Virus record (IMG/VR): IMGVR_UViG_2695420809_000009
Span: 1 to 14,330 of that record
Strand: one strand, 5' to 3'
Length of the DNA: 14,330 bases
Source of the DNA: a virus
Lineage: Duplodnaviria > Heunggongvirae > Uroviricota > Caudoviricetes
Position 1 is the first letter of the stretch. Every line of letters begins with the position of its first letter. The notes below the pieces were generated by a model that made no database searches, was not told the origin of the DNA, and was given only the letters and a program-made list of their open reading frames with translations. Of this stretch, positions 1 to 14,330 are shown piece after piece. The translations under genes and the position numbers were made by a program.

Positions 1-258
1 ATGCAAACCGTTATTTTTGGTCGTCCAGGTTGCCCTTACTGTGTGCGTGCAAAAGATCTGGCTGAGAAATTGAGCAATGAACGCGATGATTTCCAGTATC
101 AGTATGTAGATATTCGTGCGGAAGGGATCACTAAAGAAGATCTACAACAAAAGGCAGGTAAACCCGTAGAAACCGTGCCGCAGATTTTTGTCGATCAGCA
201 ACATATCGGCGGCTATACCGATTTTGCTGCATGGGTGAAAGAGAATCTGGACGCCTGA
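1..258 (+). CDS. grxA: glutaredoxin 1
   Basis: 85-aa ORF starting at window base 1 with ATG; CPYC active-site motif (GRPGCPYCVRAKDL); near-identical to my recollection of E. coli Grx1; TGA stop at 256-258. Confidence 0.95.
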   Translation: MQTVIFGRPGCPYCVRAKDLAEKLSNERDDFQYQYVDIRAEGITKEDLQQKAGKPVETVPQIFVDQQHIGGYTDFAAWVKENLDA

Positions 259-267
259 TCGTCTGAC

Positions 268-300
268 AAGCCCTCGCGTTGAGGGCTTTATTGATTTTTT
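268..300 (+). terminator. rho-independent terminator after grxA (shared with convergent ybjM)
   Basis: Hairpin AAGCCCTC-GCGTT-GAGGGCTT (268-288) followed by TATTGATTTTTT; the ybjM stop on the opposite strand lies at the hairpin edge. Confidence 0.6.
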
Positions 301-665
301 CTGTGCTGTGGTTTAAACAAGCTACTGATAAATAAGAAACACAATGCCCCCAGCGCACACCAGAACACCGCACTTAATAACCATGCCAGCTCTTGCCAGA
401 ATGAGCGCGTCGGTGAAAAAAACAGCCGCATAATGAGCATCGAACAGGGTGCCGCCAGCATTGCGCCAAACAGAGGTTTCAGGACTTCTCTACGATGTGA
501 AAAGAAGCTGGCAACTGCACCAGGAAGAATGAAAAATAGCAAACCGATTTCAGGATGCCCGGCAGCCCGAAAAGCGCCTTTCATGTGCGTCGCCAGAAAA
601 AGACACACCACAATGAAGAGGACAAAACAGCAGATTGCCCCCGCCCAACGTTGTTTATGTTTCAC
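288..665 (-). CDS. ybjM: small inner-membrane protein YbjM
   Basis: 125-aa hydrophobic ORF convergent with grxA; matches my recollection of E. coli YbjM in length and sequence; position between grxA and ybjL as in E. coli K-12. Confidence 0.85.
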   Translation of the reverse strand: MKHKQRWAGAICCFVLFIVVCLFLATHMKGAFRAAGHPEIGLLFFILPGAVASFFSHRREVLKPLFGAMLAAPCSMLIMRLFFSPTRSFWQELAWLLSAVFWCALGALCFLFISSLFKPQHRKNQ

Positions 666-934
666 TCGTTCCTCCTGACACTGCGTCTATCGAACACATT
701 TTTCGCCAGTGTGGCGTTCAGTAAGATAAAGCCGCTTCGCATTCCATGCTAATATAGGCCAACGCAATTCATATAGCCGTTGATACCTAATGTGATTACA
801 CTAGTAAAATATATTGTTACTTTACTATCGTTTAGGTGCGCTGAATGAATCTGCGCCCTGAATTCTGGTAAAAAACATTATCGTAAATTACCATTTCTTT
901 CAACAGCTTACTAGTAAACAAGAAGTTAGCCTCC

Positions 935-2620
935 GTGAATATAAACGTCGCCGAATTGTTAAATGGGAATTACATTCTGTTATTATTTGTGGTCCTCGCG
1001 CTTGGGCTATGTCTCGGGAAATTACGACTTGGTTCGATCCAACTGGGTAATTCCATTGGCGTTTTAGTCGTATCGCTGTTATTAGGCCAACAACATTTCA
1101 GCATTAACACCGACGCGCTTAATCTTGGCTTTATGCTGTTTATTTTCTGCGTCGGGGTCGAAGCCGGACCGAACTTTTTTTCCATTTTTTTTCGCGATGG
1201 GAAAAATTACCTAATGTTAGCACTGGTGATGGTTGGCAGTGCGCTGGTGATCGCCTTAGGGTTAGGTAAGCTGTTTGGCTGGGATATTGGCCTGACGGCC
1301 GGTATGTTAGCTGGCTCTATGACGTCGACACCGGTTCTGGTCGGTGCTGGCGATACACTGCGTCATTCCGGCATGGAAAGCAGGCAGCTCTCACTGGCAC
1401 TGGATAATCTGAGCCTCGGGTATGCCTTAACCTATTTAATCGGTCTGGTGAGTTTGATTGTTGGTGCGCGTTACTTGCCGAAATTGCAGCATCAGGACTT
1501 ACAGACCAGCGCCCAGCAAATCGCCCGCGAACGTGGCCTGGACACTGATGCCAACCGTAAGGTTTATTTACCGGTGATCCGCGCCTACCGCGTCGGCCCG
1601 GAGCTGGTGGCCTGGACCGACGGCAAAAATCTGCGTGAACTGGGTATTTATCGACAAACTGGCTGCTACATTGAACGTATTCGACGTAACGGGATTCTGG
1701 CGAATCCAGACGGTGATGCTGTGCTACAAATGGGCGATGAAATAGCGTTGGTAGGCTATCCCGACGCCCACGCACGACTCGATCCCAGCTTCCGTAACGG
1801 CAAAGAAGTTTTCGATCGTGACCTTCTCGACATGCGTATCGTCACTGAAGAAGTGGTCGTTAAAAACCATAACGCCGTGGGCAAACGTCTCGCACAACTG
1901 AAGTTGACCGATCACGGTTGCTTCCTTAACCGCGTCATTCGTAGCCAGATTGAGATGCCGATAGATGACAACGTCGTGCTTAACAAAGGTGACGTTTTAC
2001 AAGTCAGCGGCGATGCCCGTCGCGTAAAAACCATCGCCGATCGCATCGGCTTTATCTCGATTCACAGCCAGGTCACTGACTTGCTGGCATTCTGCGCCTT
2101 CTTTGTTATTGGGCTGATGATCGGGATGATCACCTTCCAGTTCAGCACATTCAGTTTCGGCATGGGGAACGCTGCCGGGTTGTTATTCGCCGGAATTATG
2201 CTGGGCTTTATGCGCGCTAACCACCCGACCTTCGGTTACATTCCGCAGGGTGCATTAAGCATGGTGAAAGAGTTCGGCTTAATGGTGTTTATGGCAGGCG
2301 TTGGTCTGAGCGCCGGTAGCGGTATTAATAACGGCCTGGGCGCGATTGGCGGTCAGATGTTGATTGCCGGATTGATTGTCAGTCTTGTGCCAGTGGTTAT
2401 CTGTTTCTTGTTCGGTGCTTATGTATTGCGAATGAACCGCGCACTGTTATTCGGCGCAATGATGGGCGCACGCACCTGCGCGCCGGCAATGGAGATCATC
2501 AGTGATACAGCTCGCAGTAACATCCCGGCGCTGGGCTATGCGGGCACCTATGCAATCGCCAACGTCCTGCTGACGCTGGCAGGGACAATCATCGTCATGG
2601 TATGGCCAGGATTAGGATAA
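935..2620 (+). CDS. ybjL: putative AAE-family transporter YbjL (membrane domains flanking two central cytoplasmic TrkA-C-like domains)
   Basis: 561-aa ORF with GTG start at 935; hydrophobic N- and C-terminal blocks with a soluble central region; length and sequence match my recollection of E. coli YbjL. Confidence 0.9.
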
Positions 2621-2732
2621 AACTGAAGTTGCCCTGAAAATGAAATTTTTTTGCACAACCGCAGAACTTTTCCGCAGGGCATCAGTCTTAATTAGTGCCA
2701 CTGCTTTTCTTTGATGTCCCCATTTTGTGGAG

Positions 2733-2779
2733 CCCATCAACCCCGCCATTTCGGTTCAAGGTTGATGGGTTTTTTGTTG
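2733..2779 (+). terminator. candidate rho-independent terminator downstream of ybjL
   Basis: CCCATCAACC (2733-2742) pairs with GGTTGATGGG (2760-2769), followed by TTTTTTGTTG; the 17-nt loop is longer than typical. Confidence 0.5.
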
Positions 2780-2855
2780 TCTGAAATTTATGCCGTTTAA
2801 AATCATGACGTTAGAAGCACTGTTTTTTAACGATGGCGACAAAATGGCGGCAGCG

Positions 2856-3074
2856 TCAAAGAGAGAGCGCCACCTGTCCTGATTTCATTGGATGCGGCTG
2901 AACCGGATTTGACTCTTTTGGCGTTGCAATCGAACGAACAAAAGTTTCATGGGTTACAAAAGTATGGCTGCAGTTAATATTCTGGCACTGGTTGTAACGC
3001 TCTTTGGTCAATGAAGATACCTGAAAACTGCTGCGAGTATGGGCGGCACTTCCACACAGTGGGCAAATCATCAT
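2856..3074 (-). CDS. ogr: Ogr/Delta-type zinc-finger late-gene transcription activator
   Basis: 72 aa from ATG at 3074 (MMICPLCGSAAH...YNQCQNINCSHTF...); two Cys pairs as in P2 Ogr. The ORF track extends further upstream to a GTG, but the ATG at 3074 gives the Ogr-like N-terminus. Confidence 0.8.
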   Translation of the reverse strand: MMICPLCGSAAHTRSSFQVSSLTKERYNQCQNINCSHTFVTHETFVRSIATPKESNPVQPHPMKSGQVALSL

Positions 3075-3164
3075 TTTTCGAGTTCTCCCCATTTTTGCTA
3101 AATTCACAATAATGATACCGCATTATTCCATTTTGCAAACTTAAAAGTTCTCCATTGCGAAGAA

Positions 3165-4265
3165 TCATTCCATTTCGAAATCATCAATCCTCACTTCAAG
3201 CTCCAGACTGGTCGTAAAACCGTTATCCGGGCTGACGGTATGCGTCAGAGTCGTAATGGTCCATTCCGCATCATCTATCGGCTGTTTAAAACCACTGACC
3301 TTCACAGGCATTTCCGTGTAGAGATCTGCCCGCCCTTCTGCCAGTTGTAGCGAAAATGACGCAACGCCGCGTTGCAGGCGTTCCCACTGCATTTTCGCCG
3401 CTCGTTCGGCGTTGCTCCGGTTGGCATAAGTGCGATTAAGTACCAGCACGTTTTCATCCGTACCCACCAGGTAATCGCCCTGCTTCGCTTCTGGCTCTTT
3501 CTTCTGCTTCTTAGTTCTGCGCTTACGCTTCACCGTGGTGCTTTCTTTCTTCGCAGGTTCGCGGGTATGCAACCAGCTGGCAATTACGCCCGTGTAGGCT
3601 CCGCGATCTGCCAGGGTAAATCGGTGACTGTCGCCGTCCTTGCGTGTGATAGTGATCACTGGCAGAGGTTTACCAGTGGCGCTTTTGCCCTGCCCCTGCC
3701 GGATGAATAACAGATTGCCATTTTTCACCGACGCGATGGCACCGTACTGTCGCGCCAGCCGCATCAGAAAACTGCCGTCACTCTCATTAGTCTGGTCTAT
3801 ATGCTCCACGGGCTTATCCGACAGGTCTTTACCCAGTGCCATCTTCAGCTTGTGCCGCGCGGCTATTTCCTTCACCACTTCCCCGACGGTGGTCTTATGC
3901 CACGATTTTTCACGGCGGGTATTCAGCGTTTCCCGAAAATCAGCACTTCGCGCCCGGATAGTCAGGCGGTCCGGTGCGCCAGTGTGTTCAATCTCGTCCA
4001 CTGTGAATGCCCCTTTCGGGAAAAGCGGCTGCCCCTTCCAGCCCAGCGCCAGCGTAATAACCGCACCACGGCGCGGCAGCACGATTTTTCCGTCAGCGTC
4101 ATCCAGCTCCAGATCAAGCTGGTCCGCTTCAAAGCCCCGGTTATCCGTCAGCGTCAAACTCATCAGGCGGTTATCCAGCACAGTGGTGATATCCCTGCCC
4201 TCAATACTGATGCTGAATGCGGGAGTTTTGTTGCCTTTGTTAAGCAGTTCAGAGCTGAAATTCAC
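3165..4265 (-). CDS. P2 gpD-like tail protein (late control gene D family)
   Basis: 366-aa ORF; sits immediately upstream of ogr as in P2; GTG start at 4265 overlaps the stop of the preceding U-like gene, suggesting translational coupling. Confidence 0.85.
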   Translation of the reverse strand: MNFSSELLNKGNKTPAFSISIEGRDITTVLDNRLMSLTLTDNRGFEADQLDLELDDADGKIVLPRRGAVITLALGWKGQPLFPKGAFTVDEIEHTGAPDRLTIRARSADFRETLNTRREKSWHKTTVGEVVKEIAARHKLKMALGKDLSDKPVEHIDQTNESDGSFLMRLARQYGAIASVKNGNLLFIRQGQGKSATGKPLPVITITRKDGDSHRFTLADRGAYTGVIASWLHTREPAKKESTTVKRKRRTKKQKKEPEAKQGDYLVGTDENVLVLNRTYANRSNAERAAKMQWERLQRGVASFSLQLAEGRADLYTEMPVKVSGFKQPIDDAEWTITTLTHTVSPDNGFTTSLELEVRIDDFEME

Positions 4266-4747
4266 GACAGCAGCCCTCCCACCGTTTTACTGATATCGCT
4301 TAAGGCAGACGTTGCCGTGTCCTGCAGATTATTCAGTTGCGCACTGAGATCACCGAACATATCGGACAGGGATTCATCCACTCGTTTGAGCGACAGGGTG
4401 AACTCAATCCGGCGCGGCATACCGTCGCGGAAAAACTCCGTTTTAGTCTGATTCAGTCCCTCAATCACATACATGCCGTAAATCGTGCCGCTGCCTTCAA
4501 TCAGGGGCCATGCTTTCCCCTGTTCTGCCATCTGCTCCAGTGCCAGCAACGACAGCCTGCCGCCTGTTATTTCCGGCATAAGAACACCGGAAAGCGTCAG
4601 CATGTCGTTTTCCGGTCCCAGAAACTGCGTGGACGGACGTCGGTTTACCCGACTGTTTGCCGCATGTCGCCAGCTGCGTTGATACTGCAGTTCCTGATAC
4701 GGAACGGTGCGCAGCATAAACACGTACAATCCCAGCACCATCATCAT
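4262..4747 (-). CDS. P2 gpU-like tail protein
   Basis: 161-aa ORF starting MMM; length and position (between tape measure and D) as in P2; start overlaps the stop of the upstream fusion ORF. Confidence 0.8.
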   Translation of the reverse strand: MMMVLGLYVFMLRTVPYQELQYQRSWRHAANSRVNRRPSTQFLGPENDMLTLSGVLMPEITGGRLSLLALEQMAEQGKAWPLIEGSGTIYGMYVIEGLNQTKTEFFRDGMPRRIEFTLSLKRVDESLSDMFGDLSAQLNNLQDTATSALSDISKTVGGLLS

Positions 4748-6411
4748 GCGTCGTATCCCCCCTGATCGCTGTAGTTACTCCTGGCTTTTGCCTTCAGCCT
4801 GCGTTCACGTTCATCAAGCTGGCGTGCCACCTCCCGCGCAATATCCTGCGCACTTTGTCCTGGCTGCGTCTGAATGATGATCTGCGTCGGTGCCTCAATC
4901 CGTTGAACGAGCGGCACAGTGGCTGCGCGACTCACAATTGCTTCTCCACCTTTCGCGGGAAGTGCCAAAGGGTGCAACGGTGGAAGCTCTGCTGGCGCGG
5001 CAGCAACGCCCATCATTCCGGCAACAACGGCAGCCAGTGCAGCTGTATTTCTCCGGCTGGTCACATTTGCCGGGCCGTTAACAATTTCCGGCCCGTTTTC
5101 ACCGACGATGCCAAACTGCCCGCGCGGGATATACCCGCCGCTGTCATACATCCCCGCAAAGCCATATCCCCATGATGGAAAACCACCCGATGGCATCATC
5201 ACTTTACCGTCTGCATTCACCGTCGCAGGTTGCTGACGCGTCACGCTTTCCGGCAGTTTTGCCTTTGCGGCCTCTTTACTGACAATGCCGAGCTTCTCCA
5301 GCAACCAGGAAACGCCGGATTTCAGGGAATCCAGCGGATGCATGACCATATTCAGCCCTTCCGCCAGTGCCTCCCCGAATCGCCGCCCCATTGCCGCTGC
5401 GCTCTGCAGTTCGGCAGAGGTCGACTTAACGGGCGTCAGCAGATCAGTAAACCAGCCCCACAGCGCCTGCACTTTGTCGCCAATCCACTGGAACACGGGC
5501 TTAAGCGGTTCGAACGCTGCACTGATGGGACCTGCCGCCGCTTTGAATCCTTCCACCACGCCACCGAGAAATGCGGTGATGGATTGCCAGTATTTCCAGA
5601 CAACCAGCGCCACGCCCGCCAGTGCAGTAACCACAAGACCTATCGGACTGAGCAGAGCACCTAACAGACCAGATACCGGGTCCTGCAGATCCCAGAACAC
5701 ATCAGCAGAAATTCCGGTGACACCGTTCACGCCCACGTTGGACAGGCTTTTGTGCCATCCAGTCTGCTCATCAATTTTGGCGCGCAGACCGAGCGCACGG
5801 GCGGTGGCATATGCCGTTGCTTCGGCATTCAGCACCGTGTCCCAGCCAGTAAAGTCAGGCCAGATCAGCATCCCTTCGCGCTGGCTGAAGTTTTCGCGGT
5901 AAGTGATCGCCTCCTGCACTGTCTTGCAGCCATACGCTGACAGGTAAGCAAACCCACGCAGGCTTTGCGCCACGCTCAGCAACTCAGTAGCTACCGCCTT
6001 GGTGTCGTGGCCTGGCACGCCGAGAATGCGCGGTTTAACGCCGAGCTGTGACTGGGCAGATAACAGGGCTTTCATACCTGTTTTTTTACCTTCAGCAGTC
6101 ACTGCGCCGATGATATTGGTCGTGGTTTCTTCTTCCGTTTCACCCTGCGGCACACGCACAACAACGGTCACGGGTTTTGCCTGGTCAGCGATGGCATCCA
6201 GCGAGCGGGCCAGTGTGCCGGACTCACCCGCTTTACCGCTGGCAGTCAGCACATCAGTGATCAGCACGGGTTTATTAAGAGGAAACATTTTTGCATCGGC
6301 ATCATCGCCCGTGCAGACCATCCCCACGATGGCGGTGCTCACCGTGGTAATGGATCGGGTGCCTTCGTTGACTTCAACAACGCGCACCCCGTGGTGGTAA
6401 TCCTGAGCCAT
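4744..6411 (-). CDS. in-frame fusion: N-terminal ~240 aa of a P2 FI-like tail sheath protein joined to the C-terminal ~310 aa of a tape-measure (gpT-like) protein; likely a deletion derivative
   Basis: N-terminus (MAQDYHHGVRVVEVNEGTRSITTVSTAIVGMVC...) matches my recollection of the P2 sheath N-terminus. After about residue 244 (around nt 5680) the sequence switches to a hydrophobic and Ala/Gly-rich tape-measure-like C-terminus. Strong AGGAGG Shine-Dalgarno upstream of the ATG at 6411. Confidence 0.7.
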   Translation of the reverse strand: MAQDYHHGVRVVEVNEGTRSITTVSTAIVGMVCTGDDADAKMFPLNKPVLITDVLTASGKAGESGTLARSLDAIADQAKPVTVVVRVPQGETEEETTTNIIGAVTAEGKKTGMKALLSAQSQLGVKPRILGVPGHDTKAVATELLSVAQSLRGFAYLSAYGCKTVQEAITYRENFSQREGMLIWPDFTGWDTVLNAEATAYATARALGLRAKIDEQTGWHKSLSNVGVNGVTGISADVFWDLQDPVSGLLGALLSPIGLVVTALAGVALVVWKYWQSITAFLGGVVEGFKAAAGPISAAFEPLKPVFQWIGDKVQALWGWFTDLLTPVKSTSAELQSAAAMGRRFGEALAEGLNMVMHPLDSLKSGVSWLLEKLGIVSKEAAKAKLPESVTRQQPATVNADGKVMMPSGGFPSWGYGFAGMYDSGGYIPRGQFGIVGENGPEIVNGPANVTSRRNTAALAAVVAGMMGVAAAPAELPPLHPLALPAKGGEAIVSRAATVPLVQRIEAPTQIIIQTQPGQSAQDIAREVARQLDERERRLKAKARSNYSDQGGYDA

Positions 6412-6487
6412 AGCGGCGAACCTCCTGATTGGATTAGGCTTCGCCCTATGTTGAAGTGATTGTGCCCGACAAACAGCTAAGTGTAGT

Positions 6488-6505
6488 TGTACAGTTATTC
6501 ACACA
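6488..6505 (-). promoter_or_regulatory. candidate Ogr-dependent late-promoter dyad (TGT-N12-ACA)
   Basis: TGTACAGTTATTCACACA-type dyad, TGT at 6488-6490 and ACA at 6503-6505, in the 142-bp gap between pin and the sheath fusion gene, centred about 85 bp upstream of the ATG at 6411. Chance occurrence of a 6-base match is not negligible. Confidence 0.3.
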
Positions 6506-6553
6506 AAATGACGGTATTTGTCTGCTTGCAGGGATAATCAAAATTATGCTGAT

Positions 6554-7120
6554 TCAGGGGGATTCATTGCTCTTATTTGCCGGAAATTTTCTATAAATGG
6601 TAGAAACGCCCACATCAAAAATCAGTGCAATACGCTGTCTTGATTCTCCGGCCTCGAGTAAACGTCCAATCTGTGCCCACTGTTCGGTGGTCAACTTAGG
6701 ACGGCGTCCACCTACTCTGCCTTTGGCGCGAGCTGCAGCAAGCCCCGCCCTGGTACGTTCAACTATCAGTTCGCGCTCCATTTCAGCCAGGGCCCCCATG
6801 ACATGAAAAAAGAAACGTCCCATTGGGGTACTGGTATCAATACTGTCAGTCAGGCTTCGGAAATTCACGCCACGCTGGCGCAGATCTTCTATCAGCGTAA
6901 CGAGATGCCGCATACTGCGCCCCAACCTGTCCAGCTTCCAGACAACCAGAGTGTCACCTGCCGATAATGTCCTGAGCAGTTTTTTCAGTCCCGGTCTGTC
7001 GGACTTAGTGCCACTGATTTTGTCCTCAAAAATCCGCTCACATCCCGCGCAGTTCAGTGCATTACGTTGCAAATCGGTGTTCTGGTCATTTGTTGACACG
7101 CGTACATAGCCAATAAGCAT
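6554..7120 (-). CDS. Pin/Gin/Hin/Cin-family serine DNA invertase (copy 1)
   Basis: N-terminus MLIGYVRVSTNDQNTDLQRNAL with catalytic serine context, plus C-terminal HTH; closely resembles my recollection of e14 PinE. Start taken at the ATG at 7120 (MLIGYV) rather than the ORF-track start at 7126. Confidence 0.9.
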   Translation of the reverse strand: MLIGYVRVSTNDQNTDLQRNALNCAGCERIFEDKISGTKSDRPGLKKLLRTLSAGDTLVVWKLDRLGRSMRHLVTLIEDLRQRGVNFRSLTDSIDTSTPMGRFFFHVMGALAEMERELIVERTRAGLAAARAKGRVGGRRPKLTTEQWAQIGRLLEAGESRQRIALIFDVGVSTIYRKFPANKSNESP

Positions 7121-7201
7121 GATCAATCCCCTGAATAAAAACCGGGGATGATGCCAGTTAGTCGTAATCGCTGCATTTTCTTAAACGTTGGTTTGAGAGA
7201 A
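7083..7201. repeat. left arm of inverted repeat (pin 5' end, leader, crossover site)
   Basis: Manual alignment: 7083-7201 matches the reverse complement of 9042-9160 with about 10 mismatches over about 120 bp; similarity continues outward through both pin genes and ends inward exactly at the crossover sites. Confidence 0.75.
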
Positions 7202-7822
7202 GGTTCATTTGGGTTCAGAAATCTGGTTGCCTTCACAACGGCTGGAGTAACAAGCTGGACTGTTCCTGAAGAGTTGCGCAAAGGAAGAAAATGTTACGTC
7301 AAAGTTATTGGTGGCGGTGCGTCAGGAGGGATAGGTTCAACAACCGCTTCAGCCGTTACATGTGGCGGAGGAGGTGGTGGGGGCGGAGTTGCTGAGGGGC
7401 TGGTAGATTTAACTGGTATAAACAGTGTTTCGATTACGGTTGGTACCGGTGGTGCGCCTGTGTCTGGTATTTCTGTAAACGGTAAAAATGGTGGCTCGAG
7501 CAGTTTCGGGACTTACATGTCAGCTTCCGGAGGCTATAGCGGAGGCCAGCCTTCCGGAGGGTTAGGCGCAGTTGGTGTCGGGGGAACAATTAATATATCG
7601 CTTGGGCCAGGTTCTCCAGGTTCCATTGCTTCTGCCGCATCGGGAGCTGGTAATGGTGGTTCTGGTGGTGGCCCCGGAGGAGCAGGTTCATTCAGAGATA
7701 CAGCTAACGGAAAAGCGGTATCAGCAGTTGGGCCTGGAGGTGGCGGAGCTGGATTATGTCCTAATTCATCAACGGGTCAGTCGGGTGCCGGAGCAGATGG
7801 CGCAGTTTATATTTACTGGTGA
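7148..7822 (+). CDS. tail-fibre variable C-terminal segment, glycine-rich (no constant N-terminal part present)
   Basis: 224-aa ORF beginning MMPVSRNRCIFLNVGL inside the repeat arm; in-frame TAA three codons upstream of the ATG; long Gly/Ser-rich body; reads into the invertible segment. Confidence 0.6.
   Translation: MMPVSRNRCIFLNVGLREGSFGFRNLVAFTTAGVTSWTVPEELRKGRKCYVKVIGGGASGGIGSTTASAVTCGGGGGGGGVAEGLVDLTGINSVSITVGTGGAPVSGISVNGKNGGSSSFGTYMSASGGYSGGQPSGGLGAVGVGGTINISLGPGSPGSIASAASGAGNGGSGGGPGGAGSFRDTANGKAVSAVGPGGGGAGLCPNSSTGQSGAGADGAVYIYW
7176..7201. other. 26-bp hix/gix/cix-like crossover site (left)
   Basis: TTTTCTTAAACGTTGGTTTGAGAGAA, an imperfect palindrome with AAACC/GGTTT half-site cores; sits at the boundary between the repeat arm and the divergent interior. 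Confidence 0.65.
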
Positions 7823-7829
7823 GGTTCAT

Positions 7830-8000
7830 ATGTGGGCAAGAATTGAAGAAAATAAAGTAGAAGAGATAACGGAAATTAATCCTGAAGGAAGATTCCATCC
7901 ATCATTAATATGGAAAGAATGCCCTGCTGACACACAGCAGGGGGATTTATATATTGATGGTGAGTTTATTGCGCAGTCTCCGGCAGTTCAGGCCAGATAA
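7830..8000 (+). CDS. small 56-aa ORF downstream of the Gly-rich fibre segment, possibly a truncated tail-fibre assembly gene
   Basis: ATG at 7830 preceded by GAGG; sits where a partner chaperone gene would be expected; its 3' end overlaps the convergent tfa gene. No recognisable motif, so this call is weak. Confidence 0.3.
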   Translation: MWARIEENKVEEITEINPEGRFHPSLIWKECPADTQQGDLYIDGEFIAQSPAVQAR

Positions 8001-8574
8001 CATCCGGCGCGGTGCTGGTATCTGTTGCCGTCACCGCGTCAATGTAATCCAACACCGTGTTAAGTCGGCTGGTTTCTGACTGCGTCAGATTCCGTCCGGC
8101 CTGTAATTTCAGCTGAATCAGACTAATGGAAGCCATTGCAGTATCAATCAGTGACTGACGCTGTGCTTCTGCCGCGTCTACTGCGGCGCTATGCTGTGCC
8201 TCAGTATCGGTCACCCATTTCTCACCATCCCATTTATCGTATGGCGTTAATGGGGCGATAGTGGTTGTATTTTCGGGGTGATCACCCGGTGCTGTGATTT
8301 CTTTGGCATCTCCCGTTTCGGTGTTATAGACGATTTCACCGCGATGGTCTGGCACATATTCCCATGAATTTAAATCTACAGAACGGCAAATTGTATAACC
8401 AGCCTTATATGTACCAGGAGCGTCTAAACAGGAATATGCTGGAATACCGACACCCACTGCAAGATATTCAGTTGATGCAGAAATATATTCCCGAGTTTCA
8501 CCATCGTAGTTATAGACGGTAATATTCCCCGCCTTCGTGGCAATAAACTCGCTATTTAATACTGCGTTATCCAT
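7966..8574 (-). CDS. tail-fibre assembly chaperone (Tfa family)
   Basis: 202-aa ORF ending ...DTSTAPDVIWPELPETAQ, the conserved Tfa C-terminal motif; ATG overlaps the stop of the upstream fibre segment (TAATG). Confidence 0.8.
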   Translation of the reverse strand: MDNAVLNSEFIATKAGNITVYNYDGETREYISASTEYLAVGVGIPAYSCLDAPGTYKAGYTICRSVDLNSWEYVPDHRGEIVYNTETGDAKEITAPGDHPENTTTIAPLTPYDKWDGEKWVTDTEAQHSAAVDAAEAQRQSLIDTAMASISLIQLKLQAGRNLTQSETSRLNTVLDYIDAVTATDTSTAPDVIWPELPETAQ

Positions 8575-9095
8575 TATGCAGCCCTTACGATAAAGTTAAA
8601 TGCAATATTTCGTGGACGGGTCTCACTCCCGCCAGTATTACCGATACTCCCTCGTGAATGAAGTGTCGGTGATGGGATCAGACTCCCTCCTGTATTTGTG
8701 GCATCAAGTCCCCGTCCTTGTGTGTATGTTTTTTTGAAAATCGTAGCCAGTTCCCATTCATCTTTTGTGTCGTAACCATCATTGGCAACAACAATATGGC
8801 GGTGTTTTTCCAGCATCCCAGCCTGAAGGCTCAATAAAGCACGTCCAGCATCAATACCACGCCCGTCATCCCAGCCACGAATAAACTCACCACGTAAATC
8901 TGGCAATTTATTTGTCGGGTAAGCCTTTGCCAGTTCCGGGTATTCTTCAGCAGAAAAAGCTGCTCCGTTGCATTTCAGCCAGCCTGTTGGCGGAGTGGCT
9001 GAAGGCCACGGAACAGGGACACCAACAGGTAATGCAGAGCCTTCTCCCAAACCAACGTTTAAGAAAATGCAGAGATTATGGCTAACTGGCATCAT
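8574..9095 (-). CDS. tail-fibre variable C-terminal segment with tail-collar-type receptor-binding motifs
   Basis: 173-aa ORF beginning MMPVSHNLCIFLNVGLGEG; motifs PVPWP...GWLKCNGAAF...LPDLRGEFIRGWDDGRGID are typical of Mu/P1/e14-type fibre distal domains; the crossover site lies in codons about 10-18. Confidence 0.75.
   Translation of the reverse strand: MMPVSHNLCIFLNVGLGEGSALPVGVPVPWPSATPPTGWLKCNGAAFSAEEYPELAKAYPTNKLPDLRGEFIRGWDDGRGIDAGRALLSLQAGMLEKHRHIVVANDGYDTKDEWELATIFKKTYTQGRGLDATNTGGSLIPSPTLHSRGSIGNTGGSETRPRNIAFNFIVRAA
9042..9067. other. 26-bp hix/gix/cix-like crossover site (right)
   Basis: TTCTCCCAAACCAACGTTTAAGAAAA, in inverted orientation to the left site and differing from it at one position. 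Confidence 0.65.
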
Positions 9096-9160
9096 CCCCG
9101 GTTTTTACTCAGGGGAATGCTCATGCTTATTGGCTATGTCCGCGTATCAACAAATAACCA
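9042..9160. repeat. right arm of inverted repeat
   Basis: Reverse complement aligns to 7083-7201 (see left arm). Confidence 0.75.
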
Positions 9161-9677
9161 GAATACGGAATTACAGCGTAATGCGCTGGAGTGTGCAGGA
9201 TGTGAGCTGATTTTTGAAGACAAGATAAGCGGTACAAAGTCCGACAGACCAGGACTGAAAAAGCTGCTCAGGACATTATCGGCAGGTGACACGCTGGTGG
9301 TCTGGAAACTGGACCGACTGGGGCGCAGTATGCGGCATCTTGTCGTGCTGGTGGAGGAGTTGCGCGAACGAGGCATCAACTTTCGTAGTCTGACGGATTC
9401 AATTGATACCAGTACCCCAATGGGGCGCTTTTTCTTTCATGTGATGGGTGCCCTGGCTGAAATGGAGCGTGAACTGATTGTTGAACGAACAAAAGCTGGA
9501 CTGGAAGCAGCTCGCGCACAGGGACGAATTGGTGGACGTCGTCCCAAACTTACACCAGAACAATGGGCGCAGGCCGGGCGATTAATTGCATCAGGCGTTC
9601 CTCGCCAAAAGGTGGCGATCATCTATGATGTTGGTATATCGACACTGTATAAGAAGTTTCCGGTCGGAGATAAATGA
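9123..9677 (+). CDS. Pin/Gin/Hin/Cin-family serine DNA invertase (copy 2)
   Basis: 184 aa from ATG at 9123 (MLIGYVRVSTNNQNTELQRNAL...); roughly 85% amino-acid identity to copy 1 by eye, so the two are diverged rather than recently duplicated. Confidence 0.9.
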   Translation: MLIGYVRVSTNNQNTELQRNALECAGCELIFEDKISGTKSDRPGLKKLLRTLSAGDTLVVWKLDRLGRSMRHLVVLVEELRERGINFRSLTDSIDTSTPMGRFFFHVMGALAEMERELIVERTKAGLEAARAQGRIGGRRPKLTPEQWAQAGRLIASGVPRQKVAIIYDVGISTLYKKFPVGDK

Positions 9678-9719
9678 AACCGTAGCACGTCGTATGCAAG
9701 AAGATCGTGCTGCGGTTTA
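9678..9719. terminator. stem-loop between convergent pin copy 2 and the GIY-YIG gene
   Basis: AAACCGTAGCACG ... CGTGCTGCGGTTT, a 13-bp stem with one G-T wobble and a 16-nt loop; no clear U-tract on either strand. Confidence 0.3.
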
Positions 9720-9737
9720 TGCTTATCACTTAAAGAC

Positions 9738-10607
<870 letters not shown>

Positions 10608-10687
10608 CTAAGTCTTTGAATTTACATAGTACAAAAAAGATACTTTTCCTCATAATGTGAATTAATTTTATGTTTCGTTTGATGATT

Positions 10688-10753
10688 GGACCGGTCTCGA
10701 AAACCGGAGTAGGGGCAACTCTACCGGGGGTTCAAATCCCCCTCTCTCCGCCA
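10688..10753 (+). other. 3' fragment of a tRNA-Ser(CGA) (serU-like) gene, an integration-site scar
   Basis: GGACCGGTCTCGAAAACCGGAGTAGGGGCAACTCTACCGGGGGTTCAAATCCCCCTCTCTCCGCCA: anticodon arm with CGA anticodon, long variable arm, T-arm and CCA end; no 5' acceptor or D-arm sequence upstream. Confidence 0.7.
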
Positions 10754-11335
10754 CTTTATCAATGACTTATCTCCCGACTTCCCGCCTTGCTTTTCCTAAA
10801 CAGAACAATCGTAGAATATTCTTGAAGGGTTAGATCGTCACTGTTTTCTGTTCGATACTGTGACATTCAGCACTTGATTCGCTATGGATCTGACAGGAAG
10901 GTTTCGAGCGAAAATCTGCAGTTATTCAGTCGTTTTCTTATCGGTCACCATTATTCTTTTAGACATTGATCCTACAAAGCTGCCGCAAAGTTGGTGGTGG
11001 GAACTGAAGTTGCGTAGAGAAGGGGTCAATACCCGGAGGCAAACATGGGCTGGCAAAAGTGTAGCGGTATTAGGCGCAGCTATTTAGCCTAGTTATGTTT
11101 TATGAAAACTTGATATCATATAAGTGTCTTACTTATTGGCTGTAAATAAGTTTTTCCTAAGGAATTGTTTCTTGAGTATCATTTGTAACTGTAACGGAAT
11201 TTATAATCCTTTGCTTTATTGTTACGGTATTTTTTATCACACCCTATTTTTAGTGGTTTTTTATACTGAAGTTTGGCAAAGTGAACTTTATATACATATA
11301 CTTCATCCTAGTTTCAGTTAAATTGGGTGGATGAT

Positions 11336-12079
11336 ATGGCAACTACATGTTCAGTTATATTGATTTTGGAGTCCTTTGATGTTTATTTCGGAAAAGAGAG
11401 TGTGTTTCTGGAGAGAGGTTCATCTGTACTTGTCGACTCTAGCTCTAGAGATTTTTTCCTGACATATCCTGAAAGAGTGATAGTGGCGGATTTTGGCGCT
11501 GAGTTTATTAGTCGCTATTTGAAAGCTAATAACTTAAGGGATATTTCTGATTGTAGGGAATATCCATCTTATTTAAAAATAAACTTTGCTGACTTCAGTT
11601 TAATTAAAGGATTAATTAGTTGGGCTAATCACTGTGCTGAATACATAGAAATTTTTGATGAGTCTATTGCTTTTACATGTCTCTCTGCATTTTCTTCTGA
11701 AAAACAATTTGGAGTATTTCTGTTTGGATGTTTGAAAAGCACAGGGGCTAAAGTTAAAACGATTATTCATACGGATTTATCTGCACCATGGCGTCTTAAG
11801 GATATATCATCAAGATTATATCTCAGCGAAAGTTTACTAAAGAGGAAATTGAAAGAAGAGGGGGTATCATTCAGTAAGATCATACTTGATGAGAGGATGC
11901 AAATGGCTGAATATTTACTCAGCACTCGTTGTTATCCTATTAGTAAAGTAGCTAAGGTCTGTGGTTATGCCAGTGTCTCATACTTTACTTATGTATTTAG
12001 ACGTTATTTTGGTGTTTCTCCAAGTCAATACTCTCAGAGGAGTTCAGAAAGTAAAATTCTTACTCACCAGGGAATCTGA
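11336..12079 (+). CDS. AraC/XylS-family transcriptional regulator, AppY/EnvY/Rns-like
   Basis: 247 aa from ATG at 11336, preceded by GGTGGA; N-terminus MATTCSVILILESFD resembles AppY; C-terminal double HTH signature (WRLKDISSRLYLSES...VAKVCGYASVSYFTYVFRRYFGVSPSQY); AT-rich codon usage. Confidence 0.8.
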   Translation: MATTCSVILILESFDVYFGKESVFLERGSSVLVDSSSRDFFLTYPERVIVADFGAEFISRYLKANNLRDISDCREYPSYLKINFADFSLIKGLISWANHCAEYIEIFDESIAFTCLSAFSSEKQFGVFLFGCLKSTGAKVKTIIHTDLSAPWRLKDISSRLYLSESLLKRKLKEEGVSFSKIILDERMQMAEYLLSTRCYPISKVAKVCGYASVSYFTYVFRRYFGVSPSQYSQRSSESKILTHQGI

Positions 12080-12087
12080 TCATTGTT

Positions 12088-12545
12088 CTTGCCCCCTTAT
12101 TTCCAGACAGGGGGTGTATCTTAAGTTAACGTTACCCGCTGACGTCGATATTCTCGCGGAGAGCGATAACCCAACGCACTGTGCGGATGGTTTTCATTGT
12201 AATGTTCGATCGCCACTGCAAGATTATGCAATGCCGTTCTTACATTCGGTTTCGGCATGAACGCGATGTAGTCTTCCTTCATCGTTTTCACGAACCTTTC
12301 TGCAATTCCATTACTCTGAGGACTGCTGATTGCCGTTGTGCAGGGCTCCAGATTCAACTCTCTGGCGAACTGCCGTGTTTCATGCGCTCTATACGCTGAA
12401 CCGTTATCTGTCAGCCACTGGATGGACTGTTCCGGTACTTTATCGCCAAAGCGTTTTTCTATCGCTCCTAACATGACATCCTGCACTGTCGCTTTATCGT
12501 AACCTCCCGTGCTTGCGGCCCAGTCTATGGCTTCACGATCGCAAC
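12088..12545 (-). mobile_element. IS2-like (IS3 family) element remnant, 3' portion only
   Basis: Reverse complement of 12088-12120 resembles the IS2 right terminal repeat (...TGTCTGGAAATAAGGGGGCA); the transposase-coding match stops abruptly near 12545. Confidence 0.6.
12121..12486 (-). pseudogene. IS2-like transposase (InsD/OrfB) C-terminal fragment
   Basis: 121-aa ORF (...[25 protein letters not shown]...[20 protein letters not shown]...[14 protein letters not shown]) aligns to the C-terminal third of IS2 InsD as I recall it; the catalytic N-terminal two-thirds are missing. Confidence 0.7.
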
Positions 12546-12833
12546 AGTCCAGGGCGATTCATCTGGGCCAATCCTTGCTCATAACAGGCATTCACTTCAG
12601 TCATGGCAGAAAGGTATGCATGCTGGAGAAGTCGTGAAAGAAAAGAAGACTGCTGCGCCGTTTGTCGTCACGTTTATCTTCATTGGCTATGCAAGTCGTA
12701 ATACAAGGTGGGACAAAACTGAGACACATAAGGCCTCGCAATGGCTTGCAAGGCTTTACATGTTTTGATGTGGTGGGACGTGTGAGCGCAGTGTTGATGG
12801 GGTAATGCTTTGAATTAGAAGCGGATTCTTATA

Positions 12834-12878
12834 ATTCGTAATGCGAAGGTCGTAGGTTCGACTCCTATTATCGCACCA
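12834..12878 (+). other. 3' fragment of a tRNA-Thr(CGU) (thrW-like) gene, an integration-site scar
   Basis: ATTCGTAATGCGAAGGTCGTAGGTTCGACTCCTATTATCGCACCA: anticodon loop with CGT, T-arm and CCA end; one base shorter in the acceptor 3' strand than my recollection of thrW; no 5' half upstream. Confidence 0.6.
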
Positions 12879-13032
12879 TTCTAACGTCTCCCCAAGTCTA
12901 CTCAAGTATTTAAAAACCTCTTATAATCAGTATATTAATGCCCCTTTTAGTCTTTTGACGTCTATTTAAGTACCCCAAACTCTACAAGCAATTGAGGGGA
13001 TTTGCTGTTCAGTTTAGTGGAGATACCCCCAA

Positions 13033-13371
13033 GTGAAACTCAATGCCCGTCAAATAGACACTGCCAAGCCAAAAGAGAAGGCTTACAAGTTGGCTGATGG
13101 TGGTGGTCTGTACCTCCTGGTAAAACCTGGTGGAGGAGAATATTGGCGTCTCAAGTATCGTGTAGCTGGTAAAGAGAAGCTGTTAGCACTAGGTGTGTAT
13201 CCTGAGGTCACCTTAGCTGATGCTCCTGCAAAACTTGAAGAAGCTAAAAGAGGTATCTCTGGGGGAATCGATCTGATGGAAGTGAAGCGAGAGGAAAAGA
13301 TTGCCCGGGAAACGCAGTTAAACAACACCTTCAAAGATATTGCCCTTGAGTGGCACAGTAACAAATTATAA
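13033..13371 (+). pseudogene. P4-type tyrosine integrase, N-terminal fragment only
   Basis: 112-aa ORF (GTG start) with the N-terminal arm-binding signature AKPKEKAYKLADGGGLYLLVKPGGGEYWRLKYRVAGKEKLLALGVYPEV; stops after about 110 aa where full integrases run to about 400 aa; lies directly 3' of the tRNA-Thr fragment. Confidence 0.75.
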
Positions 13372-13805
13372 TCACAATAATAGTGTATATAATTATACAT
13401 TGTATGCTTGGTAATCATATAATGATAAAAGCTTCCGATAATCAGTATGAGATTTGTCCTTAAACTCCGGGACATGCTTTTCTAAATCTTCCAATGGTAT
13501 ATGTCCATTTATACAAATAAAATTCTAGTGATAAATACCTTCAGGTATGATTAGACAACATCTTTATTCGATGGGGGTTAATCTATATTTGATATCTTTC
13601 TTTTAAATAACAACGCCATTAAAAACGCTTTGTTTAATGACGTTTTTTTATTGTTTCCTATATAAAGCCTAACCAGCATAAACATTGGTGGCTCTTATGC
13701 TCATTGTAATTAAATGAGAGTGTGATTAATGTCTTTATATATTCTGGTAGTTATTCTCTCCAGAAGAATACATTGTAAGAAGATGACTGTTAGCATGTTT
13801 TAACA

Positions 13806-14300
13806 TCAATTAACATTAAGGTTTGATAATAATTTTTTGTTGGCGAGTTCAAATGTTTTCATTTCATCATCTGATAGCCCGCTCCAGATTTTCTTTAGCA
13901 TTACATTTTGAGTGTTTATTAGTTTTTGAGCAAGTGTAACTCCGTCAGGGGTTAAGCAAATACTTTTGCTTCGACGATCGTTTTTATTATTAATTCTTTT
14001 GGCAATATTCTTTTTTTCTAATTTGTCTATGATGTGTGTGATGTTTGTTTTGGAGAATTGTAACTCCTTGTAAATATCAGAAGGGGACTGACAATAATCA
14101 TCAGACATATATAATGAAACTAACACCATAAATGTTGAAGTGTTTATTCTATACTCGCTCAATTCATTTTCTATAATACTCTGGATTTTGTCATTTACTC
14201 TAATATATAAGTGTATTAACAGACTCTCCTGAGCCGGGTATGCCGGATTTTTGATTTTTTTGTAGTTTGTTATAGTTTTTAATAAATCTATATTATTCAT
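13806..14300 (-). CDS. MarR-family (winged-helix) transcriptional regulator
   Basis: 164 aa from ATG at 14300, preceded by GGTGGA; central DRRSKSICLTPDGVTLAQKL resembles the MarR/SlyA wing region; strongly AT-rich; the ORF-track start at 14330 is at the window edge. Confidence 0.55.
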   Translation of the reverse strand: MNNIDLLKTITNYKKIKNPAYPAQESLLIHLYIRVNDKIQSIIENELSEYRINTSTFMVLVSLYMSDDYCQSPSDIYKELQFSKTNITHIIDKLEKKNIAKRINNKNDRRSKSICLTPDGVTLAQKLINTQNVMLKKIWSGLSDDEMKTFELANKKLLSNLNVN

Positions 14301-14330
14301 AATTCCACCACACGGCAAAAGAAAACTCAT

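Follow-up and report, generated by a model that had tools for sequence, protein, structure and literature searches.

A probable deletion scar joins the sheath and tape-measure genes in frame in a P2-like prophage remnant beside ybjL of Escherichia coli

The tail genes of phage P2 are arranged in the F operon, in the order FI-FII-E/E+E′-T-U-D, and are read from the Ogr-dependent promoter PF. Ogr-dependent late operons carry an activator dyad, TGT-N12-ACA, about 55 nt 5′ of the transcription start. The first product of the operon, the sheath, has relatives in pyocins and T6SS, and in these sheaths the C-terminal region comprises a conserved inner domain and a C-terminal arm which link the subunits. 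Genes of P2 ancestry persist in bacterial chromosomes in several forms. E. coli K-12 harbors a cryptic P2-type remnant of which only the attR-proximal end is left, with ogrK next to a gpD pseudogene. Other forms are domesticated defective prophages and tailocins; a tailocin depends on sheath, tube, tape measure, baseplate and fibres all being intact. Lastly, fused ORFs at the deletion junctions of cryptic prophages are commonplace.

Here we analyse a stretch of 14,330 nt, called the window below, all bases of which are 100% identical to contig CYEN01000001.1 (assembly GCA_001284385.1). It covers the E. coli chromosome at grxA-ybjM-ybjL and then the right end of a P2-like prophage. The prophage content is restricted to ogr, D, U, a fused ORF, an invertase gene, fibre-tip cassettes and tfa. 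According to the ORF list and Pfam, the window has no tube gene and no baseplate genes V/W/J/I, and it lacks most of the fibre gene H. The features on which the analysis relies are as follows.

2856-3074, minus strand: ogr/delta-type late activator gene, 72 aa
3165-4265, minus strand: gpD (baseplate hub) homologue, 366 aa (ORF list, Pfam)
4262-4747, minus strand: gpU homologue, 161 aa (ORF list, Pfam)
4744-6411, minus strand: fused ORF FI′-′T, 555 aa, ATG start, stop codon included (ORF list)
4744-5675, minus strand: tape-measure part of the fusion, T nt 2147-3078 (residues 716-1025)
5675/5676, no strand: deletion junction, 3,591 bp missing (blastn against the intact prophage L002)
5676-6411, minus strand: sheath part of the fusion, FI nt 1-736 (codons 1-245 and base 1 of the junction codon)
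6421-6426, minus strand: native FI Shine-Dalgarno sequence AGGAGG, 9 nt 5′ of the ATG, the same in the intact prophages L011 and L002
6488-6505, minus strand: TGT-N12-ACA dyad, candidate Ogr-dependent PF-type late promoter element
7176-7201: invertase crossover site, TTTTCTTAAACGTTGGTTTGAGAGAA
9042-9067: invertase crossover site, TTCTCCCAAACCAACGTTTAAGAAAA

In gene order and strand, the remnant resembles the P2 F operon. The likeness extends to the stop/start overlaps into U and D: the stop codon of the fusion overlaps the start of U (ATGA, 4744-4747), and the stop of U overlaps the start of D (4262-4265). As in P2, ogr lies downstream with its own promoter, for which a sigma-70-like match is present at 3139-3112. 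The center of the dyad is located ~ 85 nt 5′ of the fusion ATG and the annotated PF activator site of P2 ~ 82 nt 5′ of the FI ATG; this comparison refers to dyad position only, and the MAFFT alignment of the PF regions is poor. However, the window lacks 3,591 bp of the operon, which correspond to FII, E, E+E′, 37% of FI and 70% of T. It also differs in carrying a Din-family invertase gene upstream of FI, where P2 has fun(Z).

The sheath part of the fusion is ~ 68% identical to the sheaths of P2-type phages. The nearest solved structure to the intact sheath of the family is the R2 pyocin sheath PA0622 (PDB 3J9Q; residues 5-383, E = 6.5e-69). Relative to this structure, the fusion keeps the equivalent of intact-sheath residues 1-245 and is deprived of the C-terminal ~ 145 residues, namely Phage_sheath_1C and the end of Phage_sheath_1. 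Cryptic remnants of the K-12 type likewise went through an interior decay which left the ogr-D end beside a host gene, but the window remnant is younger, retains complete D and U genes and contains a chimeric ORF. With domesticated prophages and tailocins it shares the presence of tail genes of P2 ancestry in a bacterial chromosome. In contrast to tailocins, it has a truncated sheath and tape measure, no tube, no V/W/J/I and little of H, so that the complete tail-gene set (sheath, tube, tape measure, V/W/J/I, H) is not found in this remnant.

The breakpoint was mapped with L002 (NZ_OZ501623.1), in which the P2-like prophage at ybjL is intact and shows the gene order ogr, D, U, T (1,025 aa), E′, E, FII, FI (390 aa) and invertase. 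In blastn comparisons, window positions 1-5675 correspond to L002 3001-8675 and positions 5676-8618 to L002 12267-15209. The deleted interval is therefore L002 8676-12266, that is 3,591 bp or 1,197 codons, and contained FI aa 246-390, FII, E, E+E′ and T aa 1-715. FI nt 736 is joined to T nt 2147 at residue 245/246; the first base of the junction codon comes from FI codon 246 and the other two from T codon 716, and the protein reads ...DLQDP-V-SGLLGALL... across the junction. Microhomology amounts to 0 nt with the ATA allele of T and to 1 nt with the GTA allele. Both halves are close copies of intact genes. The sheath part shows no difference to the intact prophage L011 over 736 nt and the T part differs from L002 at 2 of 932 nt, while fusion residues 247-555 agree with T 717-1025 at 308 of 309 positions. 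The original prediction, made from the bare sequence, had described a single 555-aa ORF with a sheath-like N-terminus and a tape-measure-like C-terminus, joined around residue 244 by a deletion of roughly 3-4 kb that had removed the tube gene, the chaperone genes and the front of T. These alignments bear out that architecture, move the breakpoint to 245/246 and give the deletion its measured size; the N-terminal part, for which an origin outside the sheath had been named as the refuting outcome, is sheath-derived over 736 of 736 nt.

We regard the ORF as very probably the neutral scar of a recent deletion, left in a P2-like (Peduoviridae-type) prophage which is degrading next to ybjL in one small E. 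coli clone. A single illegitimate recombination with 0-1 nt of microhomology would have joined FI codon 246 to T codon 716 and excised the intervening 3,591 bp. By chance this length is divisible by three, so that one continuous frame results. The start codon, ribosome-binding site and promoter of FI would now head a frame which continues through the final 310 codons of T and then into the overlapping genes U and D. Since both endpoints lie inside coding sequence, the ribosome-binding site, the PF promoter and the T-U-D overlaps were left untouched by construction. As the retained signals lie beyond the ends of the deletion and mutation has had very little time to act, selection would not be needed to preserve them. 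The FI-T deletion preceded the loss of the remaining prophage, because one carrier (L005) has the identical fusion within an otherwise nearly complete prophage, including lysis, tail-completion and baseplate genes, a full-length fibre gene and some head genes. In the lineage of the window, a second rearrangement at a tail-fibre invertase crossover site would later have removed the rest.

The predicted product combines the outer part of a sheath subunit with a hydrophobic C-terminal tape-measure segment placed directly after it. Pfam detects two sheath domains, Gp18_domIII_N (PF22671; aa 27-87, E = 2.1e-11) and Phage_sheath_1 (aa 108-250). At the junction the latter match breaks off after position 141 of the 168-position profile, so that the last 27 positions are missing, whereas it covers profile positions 1-167 in the intact relative. 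Phage_sheath_1C (PF17482), located at aa 275-377 of the intact relative sheath, is not detected in the fusion. The tape-measure core is missing as well: intact T matches TIGR01760 at aa 200-567 and PF10145 (PhageMin_Tail) at aa 246-457, and the fusion has no match to PF10145, TIGR01760 or any other NCBIfam model. Within the T-derived part, neither Pfam nor NCBIfam recognizes a domain. This part opens with a strongly hydrophobic segment (aa ~ 247-273; mean Kyte-Doolittle value reaching 2.4 near aa 254-266) and gives a weak match to tape-measure chains of solved tails (9j1k_J, E = 5e-4). The tube gene and the frameshifting chaperone genes E and E+E′, which should lie upstream of the tape-measure part, are missing and fall within the deleted interval. 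The fusion would be unable to build a tail because the tube, the chaperones, the tape-measure core and the C-terminal domain of the sheath, which is required for polymerisation, are gone. Judged by its predicted domains, it is neither a functional sheath, nor a functional tape measure, nor a tailocin component, and is related to these only by descent from their genes.

Expression of the chimera is conceivable. The 160 nt 5′ of the fusion ATG are identical to those of the intact prophage L011. On sequence grounds, the dyad at 6488-6505 together with ogr at 2856-3074 would place the remnant among the Ogr-dependent late operons. A PF-like promoter of this kind would presumably need Ogr or a related activator. 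The window offers ogr, D, U and a credible late promoter in intact form, so that expression upon trans-activation is possible: once switched on by Ogr or by the activator of a superinfecting P2/186/P4-type element, the promoter would direct synthesis of a ~ 59-kDa chimera. The preserved frame, the AGGAGG and the coupled U and D genes to which the original prediction drew attention are all present, in their native form and as in intact relatives.

The carriers of the junction point to a very recent event. The junction is found in ~ 30 assemblies, GCA_001284385.1 and GCA_012915865.1 among them, which form one tight clone; over the 6-9 kb that can be compared, 1-3 SNPs separate the carriers from the window. 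The junction occurs in none of 5,426 complete E. coli genomes. The sources comprise NCBI assemblies, Logan assemblies of separate runs and an ENA metagenome. Only two alleles of the fusion exist, S277 on 5 contigs and the ancestral P277 in 29 blocks of the protein collection; the third member of its protein cluster is an ENA contig. Since the deletion, the remnant has undergone three changes in all: P277S in the fusion (window lineage), Q173* in D (L006) and the silent S121S in D (L009). For purifying selection across diverged lineages, the material offers one clone and just these three changes, two of which alter a protein, including the stop in D. From their closeness, the carriers are one recent clone, and the post-deletion changes look like neutral drift, although three events are too few to give a dN/dS test power in either direction. 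An event this recent leaves no room for decay, as the closeness of the carriers (≤3 SNPs per 9 kb) indicates.

A comparison with related prophages at the same locus had been proposed as a check; further remnants and related contigs revealed other deletions in the operon. Seven junctions into T, the window excluded, were resolved at the DNA level.

L014: first codons of FII joined to T-411, in frame
L018: W-52 joined to T-716, in frame; U and D also lost
L019: CII joined to T-716, in frame
L015: invertase joined to T-632, out of frame
L017: FI-117 joined to T-340, out of frame
L027: GPO joined to T-716, out of frame
L028: partner without a long ORF in the T frame joined to T-716, no ORF fusion

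Three are in frame and four are not, a small sample which is compatible with one in three. Two further deletions (L001, L016) have endpoints upstream of T.

How firmly these data speak against a role for selection has to be weighed, since the original prediction considered the intact signals unexpected for inert debris and suggested that a fusion product, or the continued expression of U and D, had been selected. Selection could act in two ways. The chimera might serve as a decoy which, when the late promoter of the remnant is switched on by Ogr-type activators, poisons the assembly of tails by superinfecting P2-like phages, or U and D might be kept expressed via translational coupling. It is true that the window retains an intact frame, Shine-Dalgarno sequence, PF-like dyad, ogr, U and D, that the retained T segment starts exactly at the hydrophobic helix, and that many in-frame fusions to the T C-terminus are present in E. 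coli protein collections, some of them on 28-46 contig blocks. However, a protein database shows in-frame cases only, by construction, and out-of-frame junctions occur at the same nucleotide (L027, L028) as well as elsewhere in T (L015, L017). One deletion in three would be in frame by chance, the signals are native and the event is very recent; the claim that the arrangement is unexpected for debris is not supported. The fusion clone is rare and very young, and the sole change in the fusion is a missense mutation. Two further observations speak against selection: in one lineage of carriers (L006) D has acquired a nonsense mutation, and both U and D were deleted in L018, which has a T-716 junction too. 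We consider it improbable that the fusion, or read-through into U and D, is kept by selection, and this estimate covers the two versions jointly. More generally, an intact frame, a strong ribosome-binding site and coupled genes are no evidence of selection if a deletion is young and its endpoints are intragenic.

Two other readings concern the nature of the ORF itself. One source names the exact protein a ‘TP901 family phage tail tape measure protein’, as if it were a complete, unusual tape measure with a merely sheath-like N-terminus. This is refuted by the alignment to intact relatives and retains practically no credibility: an intact gene for a 390-aa sheath (L011) begins with the same 736 nt as the fusion (100% identity), an intact T gene for 1,025 aa matches the final 932 nt of the fusion with its own 3′ end (99.8% identity), and FII, E and E′ separate the two genes in intact relatives. 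Consistently, no NCBIfam tape-measure model matches the fusion, and none of 50,697 phage records covers ≥80% of the protein in one place. The draft state of the assembly from which the window stems might also suggest a collapsed or chimeric contig. We hold such an artefact to be extremely improbable, as the junction recurs base-identical in at least eight loci from different projects and assemblers and is not flanked by any repeat able to mislead an assembler. A neutral scar is the reading we retain, and the fusion itself is a product of ordinary prophage decay, a known kind of pseudogene-type chimera.

The recurrent breakpoint in T is a modestly interesting lead and perhaps matters more than the fusion. 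The deletion described here is one of a recurrent class which ends at a nucleotide-precise hot spot of this prophage family, whose T gene occurs in ~ 1,000 of 5,426 complete E. coli genomes (about one fifth). The T-side breakpoint (T nt 2146/2147, window 5675|5676) is common to at least 17 independent deletions within 1-3 nt. The mapping of 122 proteins onto T, and of seven fusion junctions at the DNA level, shows that the retained T DNA begins at nt 2146-2149 with (N)TATCTGGTCTG... Searches with the fusion protein return dozens of E. coli chimeras in which a piece of another prophage protein precedes the last ~ 310 T residues. The left partners from this search are sheath-245 (the window), sheath-118, sheath-252, L, J, W-95, two internal T positions, CII, two positions in the replication endonuclease, an ORF after dam, and the invertase. 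DNA searches add W-52, GPO and a non-coding partner, and the sheath-118 junction is also seen at the DNA level in a viral contig. The DNA-level check was made since long T fragments may be lost from view by clustering at 90%, and ORF calling misses events that are out of frame.

Other remnants of this class at ybjL are among the closest known counterparts of the window arrangement. They include P0026, the 426-aa sheath118-T716 class (‘tolA’ in some sources), and P0083, a CII-T716 fusion from strain LR-27. The locus, the T-side nucleotide and the retained T′(716-1025)-U-D-ogr block are the same, with microhomologies of 0-8 nt. In contrast, the left partners are others, the deletions span 1 kb to ~ 25 kb and some junctions are out of frame. 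Some of these remnants are much more widespread than the allele of the window.

Because many independent deletions use the T site, the cause is to be placed in DNA breakage or joining at this site and not in the function of the protein. The out-of-frame junctions at the same nucleotide likewise argue for a cause at the DNA level. We examined several candidates, none of which accounts for the site. A hairpin or other secondary structure is not favored, as folding of the DNA within ± 80 nt yields no stability above that of shuffled sequence (z = +1.3). A pseudo-origin of the replication endonuclease does not fit, the annotated P2 nick site GCGCCTCG^GAGTCC being unlike GCC(A/G)^TATCTGG. The crossover sites TTTTCTTAAACGTTGGTTTGAGAGAA and TTCTCCCAAACCAACGTTTAAGAAAA do not resemble the T site either, and the variable left ends argue against a quasi-site of the Din invertase. 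Inspection by eye for Chi showed only one nearby octamer, GCTGGTTG (coding strand, ~ 65 nt downstream), which is mismatched and in the wrong orientation for the retained side. Finally, a cleavage motif K-TA-TC-Y-GG, suggested by T-716, T-671, the CII site and the sheath-118 site, is better explained by microhomology of 6-8 nt. Microhomology of this length is found in two of the hot-spot events and is 0-3 nt in the others; T-716 partners outside the K-TA-TC-Y-GG sites share 0-3 nt only.

Some other constraint could contribute to where the deletions end.

We tentatively propose, as a possibility we ourselves doubt, that T nt 2146/2147 and a few other positions in the hydrophobic-repeat region of T are specific sites of breakage or strand transfer which drive one-ended deletions of 0.3-25 kb. 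Such a site might be cut by a nuclease or nicked, act as a cryptic transposase-type end, or be a topoisomerase site. A weaker variant would see the T′-U-D-ogr remnants, including the in-frame chimeras, as decoys against related phages. If specific break sites exist, the decay of a very common E. coli prophage family would be channelled and not random. A defined breakage or joining mechanism would offer a tractable system for how bacteria dismantle prophages, and would explain the odd ‘tape measure’, ‘tolA’ and ‘CII family’ annotations of chimeras at this locus. In a literature search of limited reach, nothing was found on the T hot spot or on sheath/tape-measure fusions.

The abundance of broken T genes was surveyed in several collections. 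A metagenome scan yielded two hot-spot junctions only, both out of frame, and in IMG/VR one of 120 examined sites is broken at the hot spot. In complete genomes, 22 of 1,022 records match a 300-nt hot-spot probe only partially. Besides T-716, minor breakpoint clusters lie at T-602, T-615/620, T-632 and T-671. Partial matches to a probe over T aa 558-657 amount to 24 of 1,008, and those to a control probe over aa 333-432 to 3 of 988; a second control window of T falls in a region too divergent for comparison.

In the tape-measure gene T, deletions end recurrently, to the nucleotide, between T nucleotides 2146 and 2147 (window 5675|5676; residue 716). This endpoint is joined to at least 17 different left partners, with both in-frame and out-of-frame cases, and beyond the window it is shared by the loci L018, L019, L020, L023-L028 and L031. 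Residues 602, 615/620, 632 and 671 of T mark smaller clusters of breakpoints. Comparison with a hairpin, the P2 nick sequence and the Din crossover sites, and a search for Chi by eye, yielded no mechanism for the hot spot.

The microhomologies at many of the in-frame junctions (junction table) are built on CTG-G or similar codon-phased strings, CTG-G being a leucine codon followed by a codon that starts with G. Where co-oriented genes are joined by microhomology-mediated deletion, such codon phasing would make in-frame products more frequent than one in three.

In L006, one carrier lineage of the same sheath/tape-measure fusion, gpD is split by the nonsense mutation Q173* (equivalent to window 3749). 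The remnant in E. coli P276M (L018, NZ_CP044293.1) contains two deletions: one joins residue 52 of the baseplate protein W in frame to T residue 716, and the other runs from about residue 940 of T to just upstream of ogr, so that U and D are gone. A GmrSD-type restriction gene is among the phage genes left in this remnant.

Public names of the chimeras which end in the T C-terminus, including P0021, P0026, P0031, P0055 and P0083, are misleading; pipelines label by whichever fragment scores. The labels comprise ‘tolA’, ‘phage regulatory CII family protein’, ‘baseplate assembly protein V’ and ‘replication endonuclease’.

Two genes for Din-family invertases (82-83% identity) lie in opposed orientation with a tail-fibre cassette segment between them:

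6554-7120, (-), Din-family invertase gene
9078-9677, (+), Din-family invertase gene
6659-7206 and 9037-9584, inverted arms
7176-7201 and 9042-9067, 26-bp crossover sites of the classic type

The invertible fibre segment (window 7285-9036) is oriented opposite to its counterpart in the intact prophage L011. Another carrier of the fusion, L004, differs from the window solely at the left crossover site (7187-7204), which is consistent with ongoing or recent switching.

The right-hand crossover site is also the exact point at which the fibre gene H is cut (window ~9055-9058). Beyond the cut, window 9059-14330 holds an island of pinE, GIY-YIG, AraC and integrase-fragment genes, whose O157:H7 counterpart is located ~4.43 Mb into the chromosome and adjoins its own invertible fibre segment. 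The junction of H and the island looks like the product of an invertase recombining two separate invertible systems, with a large inversion or a deletion as the apparent outcome. The LEM-3-like gene adjoins pinE, and other E. coli conserve it along with the island.

9738-10562, (-), LEM-3-like GIY-YIG nuclease-domain protein, 274 aa
12121-12486, (-), IS-type integrase-core fragment (rve_3)
13033-13371, (+), Arm-DNA-binding integrase N-terminal fragment
13806-14330, (-), MarR-family regulator

The last three features, past the pinE island, are further mobile-element debris.
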